Shown here: in pieces, positions 8,366 to 14,974 of the stretch
Layout of the letters: each line of letters starts with the position of its first letter
Position numbering within the stretch: position 1 is the stretch's first letter
NCBI GenBank assembly: GCA_008080745.1
Contig: SHMX01000013.1
Span: 1 to 14,974 of the forward strand
DNA length: 14,974 nucleotides
DNA from: Candidatus Thorarchaeota archaeon
GTDB lineage: Archaea; Asgardarchaeota; Thorarchaeia; Thorarchaeales; Thorarchaeaceae
Direction: 5' to 3'
Translations under genes and position numbers: made by a program
Notes under the pieces: generated by a model
The model's database searches: none
Told to the model about the DNA's origin: nothing
What the model saw: the letters and a program-made list of their open reading frames with translations, nothing else

Positions 8366-10657
8366 ATCTCTCCCTTCCATAAGGGTTAGTAAAATCGTAA
8401 ATTCATAATCCTGTAATTTTGGATAGTCACGCTTCAGAAGCATTCTTTGAGCAAGTTGTCCGGGGTGTGTTTGCAGTGCCTGCACAACTCCGTTAACTTT
8501 CGATAGATTAGCAAAATGTTGAGCTCTTACTGCTGCCGCCAGTAATTTAGCAATTTTTTCAGCATGAAGGAAGGGGATTGATTCCTCTCGTAATGAGAGA
8601 GTTCTCATGAGAGAGCCATTAGCTGGAAAGTTCACTGCACCACCCTTCTCAGTAACATCGACCATTGCTAGTCCTGAAAATATCTTCACCCGTACCCCTA
8701 ACAATAGATGAAGGATAAGACCTTGCAAGAGAATTTTTGCAATACTATCAGAATTCAGGGTTCCCGAATCGGGATAGGTACTCATGAATACATAATTTCC
8801 AATCACATCGTTTGAGATACTGAAAGTTTCCCTCTTTGCTGTGCAGATTTGTTCCAATAATGTATCGATTTTTTCTGGAAACTGATCAAATGCACCATTT
8901 AAGAGCAATTTAGATGACTTAATAGGACTTCTATCGAGTTGTCTCAATTCTTTCTTGGCTAACTCCTCCATCGCCTCAGATTCTTCTATGGAAAAAGCCA
9001 TCTGAGGAATGAGAACGTACCCCCAACCTTTGTTTCCTCTAAGTATACCTTCCAGAAGACAGAGTTCACATACATTGACATTATCCAGACGTTTGGTCCC
9101 TATTCCCATAATCATGAACTTCTTGGTGCCAGAACCCACACCAGCAGCTATTGCGGTAGTTCCTGGAGCAGCGGAACCACATATTGGACAACGAATATTG
9201 CCATCCATACTTCCCATAGCCTTAGGTTTAGCATCTCTGTAGGTGAGATAGTATCTCTGAGCTAATTCATATGCATCAAACGAACAATTTGATGTGTTTT
9301 TTTGTGATGCGAGTTCTAGAAAGGGATGCTTTACATCCGCTAACAGGGTTGTCAGATATTGTCCAATTGAAATCTCTTTTATTGGATCAAACGATGGGTC
9401 TTTGAAAATTTCCTTCATTCGTTTAACAAGCACAAGATATCCTTTCAGAAAAGCATCGACCCCCTCCTCTACATTCATCGTCTTTATGGCACGATCTGCA
9501 AAGGTATTTGATTCCAGAGTTGAACTTGCCTGATCGATAAGTTCGGTCCAAGTGGTATAGCTCATCGGGAGACCAATTTCTCCAAAAGGAATTCCTAGTA
9601 ATTCAAGCTCGGTCTTTGCTAAATCTTCCAATGCACTGTTTTTCTTATCTTCATCTATTTCTATCGCGACAATATTGGACCGTAAAGCATTCTGTAAGGT
9701 TGACAGAAAGCGAACGAATATGGCTCGTTTCTGTTCATCATTTTTTCCCGAAAATCCCTTAACTTGGTTAGCTCCGAACTCAGCCAGAGTCTTCATTGAT
9801 GATAATGCAACAATACCCTCGTTGGCAATCATACCTCGATTGATTTGTAGAGCAGTTGCACTCTCAAGAAAACTAGGTTCCATCAATTTTTCAGCAAGTA
9901 ACTTTCTGATAAGACTCTCAGCATCAATAGATATTTTTTGAATGTCTAAATCACTTTTTCCAATCATTAAACATCCATCAGGATACATAGCGAGAGGAGT
10001 ATAATCTGATTCTTTGTAAGCGAGTTGTAATCCTTTATGAAGTAAATAGGTCAAAACACCACGAGTTATCTGAACTGAGTAGTATTCAAACTTAATACCA
10101 TGGTCGTTTCTCAATGTGTCAAAATCAGGTCGTTCCAATGACCGATATGCATCTCTAGGACTTGGACTCGAAGCAATCCAATCGGCACATTTGACTATGG
10201 TTCCCAAAAGAGAAATATAGGGAAGGTCCCCTCCTTCCACTTTTTCAGTTACTACCCGTGAAAGTGAAACAGCCTCCCCCACACCCAAATGAGTGTGCAC
10301 GATAACTGCATAGACTAATGCGTGGAAGCTATCCTCAAATTCACCAATCTCATCAAGTACTGAACTCACATCATCTCCACTAGGAAGGTGTGCAGGAGGT
10401 TTACTACCGGATGAAATAGCCTCCTGAAATTCCTTAGATTCCTTCCCGAGATCATGCAAATATCCAGCTATCTGAACAACGCCAACAAATTTTTCGGGCA
10501 AGTTAATATGGTCAATTATGGTTTTTGCTACACCTGAAACAGCACGCGAATGTGAAAGAAGGGTTTGTCCTCCAAATTTCTCAGACTTCGCAAGCAGTTT
10601 ATTCCAAGATCTATCTTTTGCCCAATTCTCTAGCTGGTTGAAACTTGTATGAGTCAT
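7979..10657 (-). CDS. cas10d: Type I-D large subunit Cas10d (Csc3) with N-terminal HD nuclease
   Basis: TLLSHS...LHDLGK...HTH...ADWIAS HD motifs, CPICG...CELC Zn finger, no GGDD, 892 aa. First gene of a csc2-csc1 operon. Confidence 0.92.
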   Translation of the reverse strand: MTHTSFNQLENWAKDRSWNKLLAKSEKFGGQTLLSHSRAVSGVAKTIIDHINLPEKFVGVVQIAGYLHDLGKESKEFQEAISSGSKPPAHLPSGDDVSSVLDEIGEFEDSFHALVYAVIVHTHLGVGEAVSLSRVVTEKVEGGDLPYISLLGTIVKCADWIASSPSPRDAYRSLERPDFDTLRNDHGIKFEYYSVQITRGVLTYLLHKGLQLAYKESDYTPLAMYPDGCLMIGKSDLDIQKISIDAESLIRKLLAEKLMEPSFLESATALQINRGMIANEGIVALSSMKTLAEFGANQVKGFSGKNDEQKRAIFVRFLSTLQNALRSNIVAIEIDEDKKNSALEDLAKTELELLGIPFGEIGLPMSYTTWTELIDQASSTLESNTFADRAIKTMNVEEGVDAFLKGYLVLVKRMKEIFKDPSFDPIKEISIGQYLTTLLADVKHPFLELASQKNTSNCSFDAYELAQRYYLTYRDAKPKAMGSMDGNIRCPICGSAAPGTTAIAAGVGSGTKKFMIMGIGTKRLDNVNVCELCLLEGILRGNKGWGYVLIPQMAFSIEESEAMEELAKKELRQLDRSPIKSSKLLLNGAFDQFPEKIDTLLEQICTAKRETFSISNDVIGNYVFMSTYPDSGTLNSDSIAKILLQGLILHLLLGVRVKIFSGLAMVDVTEKGGAVNFPANGSLMRTLSLREESIPFLHAEKIAKLLAAAVRAQHFANLSKVNGVVQALQTHPGQLAQRMLLKRDYPKLQDYEFTILLTLMEGRDMTTIADEIAGIMDEYYRPEKYGSSMHAILGPVNVLYNEFRRVKNLEDSSIQAIAGKMHRQLQQLNRGDYHYAEAAAPIMELCKNIADELEGLSPREQKNFLEDLRYSVYLLRLISINERIKAKKEESK

Positions 10658-10759: not shown

Positions 10760-12205
10760 TTAGACTCCCAATTTCTTGATGTCTTCACGCTTCAAAGATT
10801 TAGAGAGATGTAAAAGGCGCTTTTTCGAAGTGTCAGCCTCTTTATTAATTCGAAATACATAGTTCGAACTTGTCTTACTGTGCTGCTGAATAGACACAAG
10901 ACCGATTCGCTCCAATTCCAGAATAAGTTGACCTGGTGAGGGGTATAATAGGTTCTTCTTTACCCGATCTTTAATTCCAAAAAACTGCTCTACTCGTTTA
11001 CACCCCTTTACGATTTGACGGGCATTACGAGCACCCCGTCGGCTTTCCACAATGAATTTCACCGAGGGGTCATCCTCATGAACATACGAATCTCTAAGAT
11101 ATGCAACAGCTAAATAGTCAAATACTGTAGAAAGAGGGGGTTTCAGAGGATATACATTGGTGGAATTTAGAGTCCGTTTAGTGAGAGTGGATAGATCCGA
11201 CCGTATAGGTTCAGAACATTCAACAAGTTTCAAGACTGAATTGAAGGGGAGGGTTTTGATCAAACTGGCAAATTGTCGAGTCACATCTTTTGTCATGGAT
11301 AGCAAATCAAACCATTGTGATACAACTTCAAACACTTTACGCTCATAAGAATGTGGGAGAATGTGAGGTGAAATTTTATCTGAATAGAGATAGTGTCGCG
11401 GATTATAATTAATAAGAAGACATTCGGATATTTGCTTTAGTTCTGTTGGGTTTTCGGTATGTTGTCGTAAAGTATTCCATAATGAAGGAATCATAATCCG
11501 ATGAGCTTGAGCATATGAGATACTATCAAGTATCCTGTCAAGGAAAAGTCGAGTCGCCGAAGGTAATGTTTCAACACGAATGACACCCGAATCAACCCTA
11601 CATCGCGCATTATATTTTTGATAGGCAAATTTTACTCCAGAAGTCGGATTTTTCACTTTTAGAATCTGACTCTCAAATATATCTGAAAAAGAAGCATCTA
11701 TGGACGAATCCATGAGTAATGCCTTTTCAATGTCTGATCTATAAGATTTCAGTCTTTTACGAAATGTATTTTCAGCTGTTTGAGATAGAGTATTACCAGT
11801 CATTTTAGATAAGGGAACTAATTTCATTCTATATTCGATTAGACAGGCTGGAAACAGTCGAACTTCATCAGTTACATCAATAAGAGAATCTTTGTAACTT
11901 GTCTGATAGGCACAACGAGCCACCATAGGAATAGGAGGACGATGTGTCATACAATAATCGGTTTCAAGTCTAAAATGGTGTAATGAGAGAGGTAGGTTTC
12001 TACCGGATACTACCCATCGTAGTTTTGCTATACCATTGATGAAAGGAAGATCAGGAGATTTCGAGGGCTCTTTTAGGCATTGTTTGAAAATAGTGCGGGT
12101 TAAATTTGACGAACATAGAAATCGTAAAGAATTTCGCAAGGTGGATGTGTCAGTTATCATTTCAGGAAATGGCAAATACGAACTTAGTACAAGCATTCGA
12201 AGCAA
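10760..12205 (-). CDS. Hypothetical basic protein, possible C-terminal winged helix; likely start TTG 12205 (ORF track start GTG 12232)
   Basis: Long ORF (481 aa from 12205). SD-like GAGGGGG precedes TTG 12205, one nt after the upstream stop. C-terminal PSPGQLILELERIGLVSIQ...NYVFRIN looks helix-plus-wing-like. No catalytic motif recognised. Confidence 0.7.
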   Translation of the reverse strand: MLRMLVLSSYLPFPEMITDTSTLRNSLRFLCSSNLTRTIFKQCLKEPSKSPDLPFINGIAKLRWVVSGRNLPLSLHHFRLETDYCMTHRPPIPMVARCAYQTSYKDSLIDVTDEVRLFPACLIEYRMKLVPLSKMTGNTLSQTAENTFRKRLKSYRSDIEKALLMDSSIDASFSDIFESQILKVKNPTSGVKFAYQKYNARCRVDSGVIRVETLPSATRLFLDRILDSISYAQAHRIMIPSLWNTLRQHTENPTELKQISECLLINYNPRHYLYSDKISPHILPHSYERKVFEVVSQWFDLLSMTKDVTRQFASLIKTLPFNSVLKLVECSEPIRSDLSTLTKRTLNSTNVYPLKPPLSTVFDYLAVAYLRDSYVHEDDPSVKFIVESRRGARNARQIVKGCKRVEQFFGIKDRVKKNLLYPSPGQLILELERIGLVSIQQHSKTSSNYVFRINKEADTSKKRLLHLSKSLKREDIKKLGV

Positions 12206-12206
12206 T

Positions 12207-13679
12207 TTAATCCCCCTCAAAGTCGTGTTCACTTATTAGCCATTCATTTGTACCAGGCTTCCATCGTTCCATAGGAAAACTCCAATTGGTAAAATGCTGA
12301 TGACTATATTGAAGTAGCCATCTTTCGTATCCCTCAAGAAGCCCATTAAGTGTGTTTGATACCTCTGCCAGATAACCTTCTGGCATGCGTAGAGTGAATA
12401 TCGTGTATCCATTATGGGTACGTTGAGCATATATTTCAGGTAGGCAAGATAGAGCTCTTGAGAGTTTTTCATGTTTTGATGAATTTATGTGTGCAACCAT
12501 AATAATACTCTCTGGAGCAAAAAGGGGATTAGGAAGTATTCTATTCCAAATGATACCCCGATTCTGAAGCTCATTAAGCCTTCTTCTAATGAAATTATAA
12601 TCTTTACCTACTTCTTCGCGAACGGTCCGAACAGTCAATGGCCCTCTCTCAAAAAGAAGACGGATCATCTTTACATCCAAGTTAGTAATCTCAAATCCTG
12701 AAAGAAAAAGATCGGGAACTTGGGACTCTAGTGGGATATGTTCTTCTTCAAAACCATGACGGATAGAAGTACCATAATATGCAGGAGGAATATTCCATGA
12801 TGTGCCAGAAAATCTATCGTAGTTGTAATTCATCCAGGAACGATTGGGATTCCGCTCAAAGACTCTTACATCTGTAACGTGTTTTTTACTCAGTATCAAG
12901 TCTCGCCAATCGTCTATTTCTGATCCGGATCTCCAAGATATAGGGACTATCAGATTTACAAGTATGAAACGATTTCCAAACTTGCAATCATATATGCTAT
13001 GAACCCAAGGATTTGGATGACCTACTTGGATAGGCAAGGGGGCATCTAGATTATCCATCTCAATTAAAACAATGGATACTTTTAGATTTAATGCCCGATA
13101 GGAAAATCGAATCGCTTCATATAGAATCTTTCTTGAGCATAGCTCCTGGAGCTTTCTCGAAACATAACCTTTTGTAGTTCCAATCAGCTCAGCCAATTTA
13201 CTGGGAGAAATGGTCTGTGTATAGATGGCTTTCTGAAAGATGTCCACCTCTCGGGATGTGAGAACAGGCCGATATTGACTGCGAATTTTAAGAACCGTAG
13301 CGATAAAGTCATCACGAATAGAATCACTGGATATCTCCCTGAGCCTAAGAAAAGCTGATTTTAGTAAATGGAAACTCTCAGGGTGACTGAGGAGCATATC
13401 GTAGATTCGAGGAGGATCATAGATAAGATTTGACCCAGCGTAACTATGCTCGGTCTTAGACTGCCAGAACCAATCGAGTTCTACCAATTGATGATGAGGG
13501 ACTCCTAGTTTTAGCAGTAATTGTTTAGTCCTAAAACAAATAATATCCCAAACTATTGCATTATTTGCTAGATCCAGTTCCAATATCAGGTCCTTTATCG
13601 AGGTACTAATCTTTTCTCTATCATTCTTCTTACATTTTGCAGTACTGCATATCTGTTCAATGATAGTCTGAAGTTTCAT
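12207..13679 (-). CDS. Tandem wHTH / Lrp-AsnC-like transcriptional regulator with an extra N-terminal domain
   Basis: Two HTH units (LTSREVDIF...ISPSKLAELIGTTKGYVSRKLQEL and LDVKMIRLL...LTVRTVREEVGKDYNFIRRRLNELQNRGII), each followed by a ferredoxin/RAM-like alternation of hydrophobic strands. Confidence 0.7.
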   Translation of the reverse strand: MKLQTIIEQICSTAKCKKNDREKISTSIKDLILELDLANNAIVWDIICFRTKQLLLKLGVPHHQLVELDWFWQSKTEHSYAGSNLIYDPPRIYDMLLSHPESFHLLKSAFLRLREISSDSIRDDFIATVLKIRSQYRPVLTSREVDIFQKAIYTQTISPSKLAELIGTTKGYVSRKLQELCSRKILYEAIRFSYRALNLKVSIVLIEMDNLDAPLPIQVGHPNPWVHSIYDCKFGNRFILVNLIVPISWRSGSEIDDWRDLILSKKHVTDVRVFERNPNRSWMNYNYDRFSGTSWNIPPAYYGTSIRHGFEEEHIPLESQVPDLFLSGFEITNLDVKMIRLLFERGPLTVRTVREEVGKDYNFIRRRLNELQNRGIIWNRILPNPLFAPESIIMVAHINSSKHEKLSRALSCLPEIYAQRTHNGYTIFTLRMPEGYLAEVSNTLNGLLEGYERWLLQYSHQHFTNWSFPMERWKPGTNEWLISEHDFEGD

Positions 13680-13704
13680 CCCGTCTTTAAAGTATCATTT
13701 CCCC

Positions 13705-13711
13705 TATAAAA
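13705..13711 (-). promoter_or_regulatory. TATA-like box for the wHTH gene (likely leaderless)
   Basis: TTTTATA ends about 26 nt before ATG 13679. Confidence 0.45.
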
Positions 13712-13747
13712 TAATAATCCCCCAACCAGATTACGAGTTTTAGAAGT

Positions 13748-13813
13748 TTATATGGCCTTTATTTTGCTGTTAGAAGATAAATAACGCCTTTCTTTCCTGT
13801 CCAATTTGGTCAT
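13748..13813 (-). CDS. Putative 21-aa basic mini-ORF MTKLDRKERRYLSSNSKIKAI
   Basis: SD GGAGGTGG (13829-13822), 8 nt, then ATG; ends at TAA 13750-13748. Not in the ORF track because of its length. Confidence 0.4.
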   Translation of the reverse strand: MTKLDRKERRYLSSNSKIKAI

Positions 13814-13852
13814 CCAATTGTCCACCTCCTAGGGTCTCAGAGGTGATAAAGA

Positions 13853-13900
13853 ATGCAACGCCCTCCTGATGACCCATTTCCAATACCCCCGTGGGATTGA
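13853..13900 (+). CDS. Putative 15-aa proline-rich mini-ORF MQRPPDDPFPIPPWD
   Basis: Near-perfect archaeal SD GAGGTGAT (13840-13847), 5 nt, then ATG; ends at TGA 13898-13900; 6 of 15 residues are Pro. Confidence 0.5.
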   Translation: MQRPPDDPFPIPPWD

Positions 13901-13927
13901 ATCAGTACTAAAAACAAAAGTGGCCAG

Positions 13928-14013
13928 AGACCTCGAATCAATCGAGGTCTTACCCTTAGACAGCATACAAGGGCATCCACGAACATATAATCGTGGCCCC
14001 TTTTTCTTTTTTT
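13928..14013 (+). terminator. Cluster of three hairpins followed by a T-tract (3' end of a putative small RNA)
   Basis: AGACCTCGA/TCGAGGTCT (13928-13950, 9 bp), CCCTT/AAGGG (13953-13973), CCACGA/TCGTGG (13977-13996), then TTTTTCTTTTTTT (14001-14013). Confidence 0.5.
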
Positions 14014-14185
14014 GGTTCTGTTAACGATATGATAAAACAGAAGAATCACATGTTTTGGTCTTTGGGTAATATTGCGGATGGATGAATAGTAACTTTTCGA
14101 GATACATCGCTTCTTCATTTCATTAGGATATACCTCTAAGATTTTTGTTTGATAATAACGGTAGTGCACCCTAAAACACTTCAAA

Positions 14186-14225
14186 CATTATTCTTTTCTA
14201 GTAAACCTAATCTAGAAAAATAATG
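14186..14225 (-). terminator. Hairpin downstream of the terminal repeat; candidate pre-crRNA terminator
   Basis: CATTATT(CT)TTTCTAG, 10-nt loop, CTAGAAAAATAATG: a 14-bp stem with a 2-nt bulge, 16 nt beyond the last repeat in the inferred transcription direction. Confidence 0.4.
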
Positions 14226-14241
14226 GGAAACAACAGAAATT

Positions 14242-14974
14242 GTTTCAATCTCCTTACTTGGAGCTTATTTTCTGCAGCGTTGAAACCGTTATCGAGGCTC
14301 AGAAGAGAGCCGTCTTTCAATCTCCTTACTTGGAGCTTATTTTCTGCAGCCTTATTATGTTGAAACAAACGGTTTAACAAGTGTCTCCTTTCAATCTCCT
14401 TACTTGGAGCTTATTTTCTGCAGCATTATAGTTATGTTCATCTTTTGTTTAAAAGATGGTATAACTTTCAATCTCCTTACTTGGAGCTTATTTTCTGCAG
14501 CCAAGTTCTTGATATTATTCTTGCCTACTACAATAGTCTTTCAATCTCCTTACTTGGAGCTTATTTTCTGCAGCATAGGGATTTGTCCAAACATACCCCG
14601 GTTCGCCTGAGATCTTTCAATCTCCTTACTTGGAGCTTATTTTCTGCAGCGAGCCAGTTGGATATCGTGGTTTGTCGCGTCTGGGTTTGCTTTCAATCTC
14701 CTTACTTGGAGCTTATTTTCTGCAGCTATCAGATTCTGACCTTTTCTTTTTGAATTCAATATCCTTTCAATCTCCTTACTTGGAGCTTATTTTCTGCAGC
14801 AAAGGTGTATCGAGGTTCGACATCGATCAGGCATGATGCTTTCAATCTCCTTACTTGGAGCTTATTTTCTGCAGCTCATGGGCGGGGCTAGGTTTGATGC
14901 GTCGGGACCGTTCAGCTTTCAATCTCCTTACTTGGAGCTTATTTTCTGCAGCGAGCCAGTTGGATATCGTGGTT
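14242..14974 (-). CRISPR. CRISPR array, trailer end: 10 repeats of 37 bp, 9 complete spacers (35-40 nt) and 1 partial; continues beyond the window
   Basis: Repeats start at 14242, 14314, 14388, 14465, 14538, 14614, 14690, 14764, 14839 and 14916. Minus-strand consensus GCTGCAGAAAATAAGCTCCAAGTAAGGAGATTGAAAG: the CUCC/GGAG stem ends exactly 8 nt before the end (AUUGAAAG handle). The only mismatched repeat is the leftmost (14242 C>G), consistent with a trailer. Confidence 0.98.

Follow-up and report, generated by a model that had tools for sequence, protein, structure and literature searches.

In a Thorarchaeota archaeon, the 560-nucleotide (nt) gap separating a regulator open reading frame (ORF; 12207-13679) from a CRISPR array probably holds one real small gene, a translated 15-residue proline-rich micro-ORF that acts as a polyproline/PPW pausing ORF or as a micropeptide within a regulator module. 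The DNA analysed, referred to below as the window, is an entire 14,974-bp contig (G000:C13) of a 3.16-Mb archaeal metagenome-assembled genome and carries a type I-D CRISPR-Cas locus. The micro-ORF (13853-13900, plus strand, MQRPPDDPFPIPPWD) would belong to a plus-strand unit comprising a TATA-like box, a 5′ motif, a perfect Shine-Dalgarno (SD) sequence, the 15 codons, a structured 3′ part and a T-run. Together with two genes that run divergently from it, here named wHTH490 and orfB490, this unit would make up a conserved three-part module, which heads the type I-D interference operon in the window genome and in three others. Such a unit, at a regulator module that heads cas operons in Thorarchaeota, is previously undescribed; to our knowledge, conserved micro-ORFs are almost never annotated in archaea. 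The finding of a single conserved micro-ORF corrects an initial annotation, made from the window sequence, which had read the region as a candidate toxin-antitoxin system or translational switch built on two divergent mini-ORFs.

The evidence for a translated ORF comes from comparison with related genomes. A DNA search of 60 of them, with the intergenic region as query, matched 13840-13978 only, and the match begins exactly at the plus-strand SD; identity is 72% in genome G008 and reaches 85% over 13928-13979 in G011. The encoded peptide has the core P-[DGNE]-D-P-x-P-[IV]-P-P-[WF] at nine loci, found in eight Thorarchaeaceae genomes of seven genera and on one metagenome contig from the Joint Genome Institute (JGI). 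The nine peptides are MQRPPDDPFPIPPWD (window genome, G000), MYRPPDDPSPIPPF (G008), MYHPPDDPHPIPPW (G012, TTG start), MHNPPGDPSPVPPWC (G011), MALSSPPGDPHPIPPW (G023), MVSCPPNDPMPIPPW (G016), MNPGDPWPIPPWRPA (G005, GTG start), MTANPGDPYPIPPWVPDGPRA (G062, GTG start) and MWPPEDPNPIPPW (JGI contig). Start and stop are kept in all of them, and all but one have a strong SD (GGAGGTGA, GAGGTGA or GGGGTGA) ahead of the start. The length stays at 13-21 codons throughout, so the ORF is not the stump of a longer gene, a possibility that the initial annotation had raised.

Over the ten core codons, pairs of loci differ at 11% of first, 16% of second and 64% of third codon positions, and the eight fixed codons show 168 synonymous versus 16 non-synonymous differences. 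We interpret the excess of third-position and synonymous changes as the signature of a translated sequence; on this comparative evidence, the micro-ORF is under purifying selection at the amino-acid level. The same numbers bear on the idea that the region has no coding function, its conservation reflecting operators or the promoter of the divergent regulator and the ORF being incidental. The site is indeed an intergenic control region, and the first of the two hairpins described below doubles as a palindrome in the DNA, with arms that could change in step with regulator specificity. However, three-base periodicity and a synonymous excess are not expected of protein-binding DNA, the start, the stop and (at eight loci) the SD are retained, and the ORF persists in G016, where the regulator is missing. 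We therefore give this explanation next to no weight.

The peptide is hydrophilic, contains acidic residues and consists of 40-47% proline, compared with 4.2% for the proteome. PP-[DGNE] occurs at seven of the nine loci and PP-[WF], at or near the stop, at all nine. At every proline position CCT, CCC, CCA and CCG are interchangeable across loci, and purifying selection extends to the non-proline residues (D, I/V and W/F). The micro-ORF is present in a single copy in its own genome, none of whose long ORFs holds the peptide's combination of motifs. A peptide-pattern search gave genuine matches in 8 of the family's 86 genomes and none in 314 other genomes of the phylum, with no hits for a control pattern. 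Four pattern hits in other Asgard families were set aside as chance matches that lie inside other frames and have neither SD nor start, and two hits within the family (G065 and G078) were dismissed likewise. Scanning JGI metagenomes for an SD, a start and the peptide pattern returned one locus, which is genuine, and a scan of IMG/VR gave two hits, both within long reading frames rather than micro-ORFs. Two longer ORFs that overlap the site, of 51 residues (13869-14024) and 115 residues (13837-14184, minus strand), were treated as spurious because conservation tracks the micro-ORF frame and, in the 3′ part, base-pairing. Literature searches produced no description of PIPPW or of this micro-ORF element.

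The initial annotation had placed two back-to-back, mutually complementary SD sites at the centre of the region, each driving a mini-ORF, and every motif that it named is present at the coordinates it gave. The plus-strand SD GAGGTGAT (13840-13847) lies 5 nt before the ATG at 13853, which opens 15 codons ending with a stop at 13898-13900, and it is a perfect complement of the 16S rRNA 3′ end of the same genome, GGAUCACCUCCU. On the minus strand, CCACCTCC (13822-13829) stands 8 nt from an ATG at 13813-13811 that opens an ORF of 21 codons. The spacing is thus canonical on both strands. SD-like heptamers are nevertheless not enriched in the window genome (297-345 sites versus 386 expected); about 40% have a start codon 3-10 nt further on, half of these open ORFs of fewer than 30 residues, and an SD with a start and a short ORF arises by chance at dozens of genomic sites. 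Genome-wide, divergent SD-like pairs within 40 nt number one, the window pair itself, against 1.3 expected. The back-to-back pairing is therefore at chance level.

Comparison with the relatives separates the two strands. Aligned with MAFFT, the 110 nt preceding the nine micro-ORFs show nothing comparable to the minus-strand SD and ORF at any of the eight related loci, and the small minus-strand ORFs of the nine loci are unrelated to each other; of the two proposed mini-ORFs, only the plus-strand one is conserved. An anti-SD upstream of the SD is likewise seen in the window and at none of the related loci, and the mutual SD complementarity is unique to the window genome. The 6-bp CACCUC/GAGGUG hairpin, by which a transcript was supposed to hide its own SD, is absent from the minimum-energy and centroid folds of 13777-13900, a segment that folds no better than its shuffled versions (z = -0.89, with 36 of 200 shuffles equally stable). 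Nor do the peptides resemble type I toxins, which are small, hydrophobic and membrane-active: the plus-strand peptide is hydrophilic, and so is the minus-strand one, MTKLDRKERRYLSSNSKIKAI, which is basic as well. In a type I system both partners would also be conserved together, whereas the plus-strand ORF alone has counterparts at the eight related loci. Taken together, these data make a type I toxin-antitoxin system or a translational switch based on complementary SDs very improbable.

The micro-ORF is plausibly carried by a small plus-strand transcription unit of about 160-235 nt that runs from a TATA-like box to a T-run. The candidate promoter GTTTATATGG (13746-13755) includes the TTTATAT noted in the initial annotation (13747-13753), fits the YTTTWTAR boxes found upstream of tRNA genes in the same genome, and recurs as a TATA-like element at -99 to -107 (about -103) from the micro-ORF start at seven of nine loci. 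A second candidate box, ATAAATAA, lies at about 13778-13785, some 75 nt before the start. At the other end, a terminator scan identified a terminator-like hairpin (13977-13996) followed by the T-run (14001-14013), the two together spanning 13977-14013 on the plus strand. A T-run is found downstream of the micro-ORF in G000, G008, G012, G011, G005, G062 and the metagenome locus; G016 has a T-rich stretch only, and the G023 contig ends too early for a call. The RNA of about 235 nt drawn in the initial annotation from the TATA-like box to the T-run is thus plausible, as its parts recur in relatives, but the minus-strand ORF that it was to regulate in antisense is not conserved.

Upstream of the SD, only one short motif aligns among the nine loci, a weakly conserved CCAATT... 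element at 13803-13825 (plus strand) for which the consensus of the relatives is about CCAATTAGCTNAGGGAGTTYC; CCACCTCC falls just past it. The motif is present at loci that have the winged-helix regulator and absent in G016, which has no such regulator, and it could be an operator or a 5′-untranslated-region element. Downstream of the stop codon lies a two-hairpin element (13928-13976), composed of a 9-bp stem with the loop ATCAA followed by a CCCTT/AAGGG stem. This element is 72-85% identical to its counterparts at loci whose neighbouring protein shares just 37-43% identity, and compensatory changes affect eight of the ten pairs of hairpin 1. Relative to shuffled sequences the plus strand is the more exceptional (z = -5.5, against -3.5 for the minus strand), yet the minus strand folds better at six of seven loci, A·C mismatches becoming G·U pairs. 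A covariance model of the element matches these loci only among the 86 family genomes, in single copy; four weak additional hits proved to be unrelated hairpins. Pairing between the 5′ motif and the 3′ domain was considered as well and set aside, the short complementarities lying at different places in each locus and being taken as chance. An E-value scan of 13300-14974 against Rfam yielded sub-threshold, snoRNA-like noise and nothing meaningful.

The neighbour across the intergenic region is wHTH490 (12207-13679, minus strand), a 490-residue tandem winged-helix regulator of the Lrp/AsnC type with Pfam TrmB/HTH_24 matches. Its C-terminal third (profile residues 334-452) matches a complete Lrp/AsnC unit, that of PH1519/FL11 (residues 22-139, E = 6.6e-7), and LrpC as well. 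The protein has the helix-turn-helix (HTH) followed by a RAM-type ligand domain that characterizes Lrp/AsnC (FFRP) regulators, in a fused, multi-unit variant, and its structural neighbours in the Atlas are tandem HTH_AsnC proteins of Thorarchaeota. Homologues sharing 23-45% identity lie divergent from the micro-ORF, 150-250 nt away, at eight of nine loci. A search for related loci with a four-sequence alignment of the regulator added none to those already identified. A strong TATA-like box, TTTTATAG (13702-13712, minus strand), sits about 25 nt upstream of the regulator ATG at 13679, which suggests that the wHTH490 mRNA is leaderless.

Downstream of wHTH490, always in the same order, is orfB490 (10760-12232, minus strand), which encodes a second protein of 490 residues. 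Homologues follow wHTH490 at the seven loci with long enough contigs and are 27-29% identical in G008, G012, G011, G005 and G062. OrfB490 has no matches in Pfam, NCBIfam or the PDB, and its AlphaFold2 model is poor (pLDDT 57), with confidence only for the C-terminal 125 residues or so, which are predicted to be helical and winged-helix-like. Behind the pair come cas10d, csc2, csc1 and cas3 in G000, G008, G012 and G011. In G005 and G062 the module lies without cas genes amid unrelated ones (enolase, ferredoxin, MNT/HepT and beta-propeller proteins), and in G016, a 95%-complete genome, the micro-ORF faces a type III operon and has no close wHTH490 or orfB490. Given these varied contexts, the micro-ORF, wHTH490 and orfB490 are, as far as gene neighbourhoods tell, a movable three-part module. 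This supports the initial annotation in linking a regulatory module to the I-D locus; its suggestion of an addiction module found no support. The G016 operon (G016:C69; L031 3073-9630) encodes a Cas10 with a palm2 domain, a 632-residue fused RAMP protein that weakly matches Csc2, another RAMP and two uncharacterized small proteins. The two small G016 proteins beside the micro-ORF bear no similarity to wHTH490. We also discarded a general array-leader role for the micro-ORF unit, the array being inverted in the window and absent at three loci (G005, G062 and G016).

How the micro-ORF acts is a more tentative matter. The motifs that it encodes belong to the polyproline class, which bacteria need EF-P to translate and eukaryotes eIF5A and polyamines; when bacteria lack EF-P, pausing is most prominent at PPW, and this motif is required for polyamine/eIF5A control of the upstream conserved coding region (uCC) of AZIN1 (PMC8705083). 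At the peptide level, the micro-ORF has the features of a polyproline-arrest leader, namely a short ORF and a conserved peptide with PPX/PPW. A possible reading, toward which we lean with reserve, is that it works in cis as a ribosome-pausing sensor. The one or two strong polyproline pause motifs in each peptide would stall the ribosome, the rate of micro-ORF translation would report on aIF5A, proline or polyamine status, and this rate would in turn set the fate of the small RNA itself. The peptide is near-invariant while the regulator falls to 23% identity, and it persists in G016 without that regulator; both observations point to a constraint imposed by something highly conserved, such as the ribosome.

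Several observations weigh against a pausing sensor. No gene lies consistently downstream in cis, since the array has the same direction as the micro-ORF in G008, G011 and G012, is inverted in the window and is absent in G005, G062 and G016; such a sensor thus has no defined output. Depending on the locus, the stop codon and the hairpins are 30 to about 135 nt apart, and in G005 and G062 the T-run falls between the micro-ORF and the two-hairpin element, an arrangement that, with the variable spacing, is at odds with a classical attenuator. The two-hairpin element itself may be a plus-strand RNA, a minus-strand RNA or a palindromic DNA operator. In this uncultured lineage we infer transcription, the transcription start site and translation of the micro-ORF from conservation only, and the conservation of D, I and W besides P fits a trans-acting peptide equally well.

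Such a peptide, of 13-21 residues, could bind wHTH490, its most obvious partner, or OrfB490 and tune expression of the module and of the cas operon. Members of the Lrp/AsnC family sense small ligands through their RAM domains, and wHTH490 contains a complete Lrp/AsnC unit. Selection on the non-proline residues and the linkage to wHTH490 at eight of nine loci, across a common intergenic control region, agree with this proposal. It also draws on an observation in a distant Asgard family, where a diverged Pro/Trp-rich micro-ORF of 26 codons (MVGPGDGDPVPLWP...; L054 2590-2680, G041:C24), given as MVGPGDGDPVPLWPSPWPEPPPPSSG, has both an SD and a T-run and is oriented divergently to a 541-residue winged-helix paralogue of the regulator. 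This locus hints that the pairing of peptide and regulator is older than Thorarchaeaceae. However, 15 of the 16 distant paralogue loci have no comparable micro-ORF, and in the 95%-complete G016 genome the micro-ORF occurs without close wHTH490 or orfB490. Moreover, the peptide is almost invariant next to wHTH490 proteins that share 23-28% identity, which would be unusual for a co-evolving ligand-receptor pair. We regard a trans-acting micropeptide as somewhat unlikely taken by itself, yet nearly as likely as the pausing sensor.

The closest parallels to the pausing sensor are two leader ORFs, the AZIN1 uCC and mgtP, the latter being the proline-codon leader ORF of Salmonella mgtCBR. The likeness lies in a very short, conserved-peptide ORF with PP-X motifs, including a PPW at or near the stop, a motif that requires eIF5A/EF-P for its translation and responds to polyamines (PMC8705083), and in conservation that acts at the peptide rather than the nucleotide level. 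Unlike these two, the Thorarchaeota micro-ORF is archaeal, has its own SD and terminator instead of lying in the 5′ leader of a protein gene, is divergent from its candidate targets and has no consistent downstream cistron, and pausing on it is predicted. That it is a prokaryotic counterpart of the AZIN1 uCC, pausing on it controlling CRISPR-Cas interference operons through a structured RNA and an Lrp-like regulator, is accordingly a speculative extension that we think unlikely.

Proximity to a type I cas operon invites comparison with CreTA, the other system to which the initial annotation appealed. As a CreT-type RNA toxin, or a trap for ribosomes or aIF5A, a strongly translated mini-ORF RNA would do harm once derepressed; its usual silencing by the regulator or by Cascade would make the locus addictive. 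The unit has the CreT-like architecture of a small RNA beside a type I cas operon with a strong SD (here perfect), an AUG start, a very short ORF and a stem-loop. In G062, the module is closely followed by two copies of a direct repeat (L030 7069-7097 and 7136-7164), identical over 29 nt, or about 31 nt if flanks are counted, and spaced 67 nt; the pair resembles a mini-array and shares TCAATCT with I-D repeats, on an 8.4-kb contig without cas genes. Type I-D loci are, in addition, known to carry cargo regulator and toxin-antitoxin genes upstream of cas10d, possibly under mini-array control (Shmakov et al., PMC10120712).

Against an RNA toxin, a scan of the intergenic regions of G000, G008, G012 and G011 detected no CreA-like pseudo-repeat guide: the best ungapped match to each locus's own repeat covers 19-21 of 37 positions, on a par with the average of shuffled sequences (19-20) and short of their best (22-24). 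Nor was a partial protospacer detected: no spacer of the window array, nor the degenerate guide at 38-74 that the initial annotation had offered as a possible CRISPR RNA against the promoter, shares at least 10 nt with 13680-14241, apart from a T-run match at 14002. The CreT toxin acts through a specific rare-codon pair that sequesters the cognate tRNA. In the micro-ORF the four proline codons are interchangeable, which rules out action through one rare tRNA. Synonymous variation goes together with a conserved peptide sequence, and such conservation is not needed for CreT; the module occurs away from cas genes too. An RNA toxin of this kind is thus improbable.

The module can also be set beside the I-D cargo blocks. 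Like them, it is a regulator-containing block between the array side and cas10d that moves elsewhere as well; the described cases, however, are tied to mini-arrays that target cargo promoters, none of which is detectable in the window, and neither the micro-ORF nor the two-hairpin element features among them (PMC10120712). A different comparison is offered by bacterial and phage systems in which a tiny peptide gene adjoins that of a large cytoplasmic DNA-binding regulator. RRNPP quorum sensing and phage arbitrium (AimR/AimP) are peptide-plus-receptor regulators of this type. In contrast to their peptides, the Thorarchaeota one has no signal sequence or processing site and is invariant across highly diverged receptors, and the system is archaeal with an Lrp/AsnC-like rather than a TPR receptor.

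We know of no peptide-dependent regulatory ORF of this kind in archaea, and literature searches were likewise blank. If the micro-ORF senses aIF5A or polyamine status, Asgard translation control would be linked to defence; if it does so as a pausing sensor, PPW-based sensing would predate eukaryotes, and a true counterpart of the AZIN1 uCC would couple immunity to translational or metabolic stress such as virus infection. A micropeptide cofactor of an Lrp-type regulator would instead represent a new ligand class for the Lrp family. With a 15-residue peptide and an RNA of 160-235 nt, the unit is a precise and cheap target for in vitro tests.

The remainder of the window holds a type I-D gene set, with cas10d, csc2 (Cas7d), csc1 (Cas5d), cas3, cas6 and an adaptation module. 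The adaptation genes (582-3383, plus strand) comprise a DUF2797 gene followed by cas1, cas2 and cas4 (Pfam Cas1, Cas2 and Cas4); the DUF2797 gene (582-1472, plus strand) is the first of the operon and directly abuts cas1 upstream. The interference genes and cas6 occupy 3392-10657 on the minus strand as cas6, cas3, csc1, csc2 and cas10d, identified through Pfam (Csc2, Cas3 helicase and Cas6), TIGR03159 for Csc1 and TIGR03174, below cutoff, for Cas10d. The CRISPR array, with 37-nt repeats, begins at 14242 and continues to the end of the contig. On the minus strand its repeat closes with a 4-bp hairpin and then ATTGAAAG, the usual handle of 8 nt, so that the window array is probably transcribed towards the micro-ORF. 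G008, G011 and G012 have homologous arrays (L025 7165-8644, L026 1-401 and the end of L027) that run in the direction of the micro-ORF and are situated 0.5-1 kb downstream of it, which indicates that the array is inverted in the window genome. The same repeat occurs in the same orientation at both contig ends, at 1-37 (a degenerate copy with two mismatches) and at 14242-14974, and the incomplete spacer with which the contig stops (14953-14974) is a repeat of the one at 14651-14689. A break or loop of the assembly within one or two arrays on the flanks of the cas locus is therefore probable. The window DNA is present in two marine-sediment metagenome DNA runs, probably its source. Elsewhere in the genome, the 16S rRNA gene (G000:C2:589938-592348) spans 2,411 nt, compared with 1,478 positions in the archaeal model, and its insertion of about 930 nt probably consists of one or more introns.

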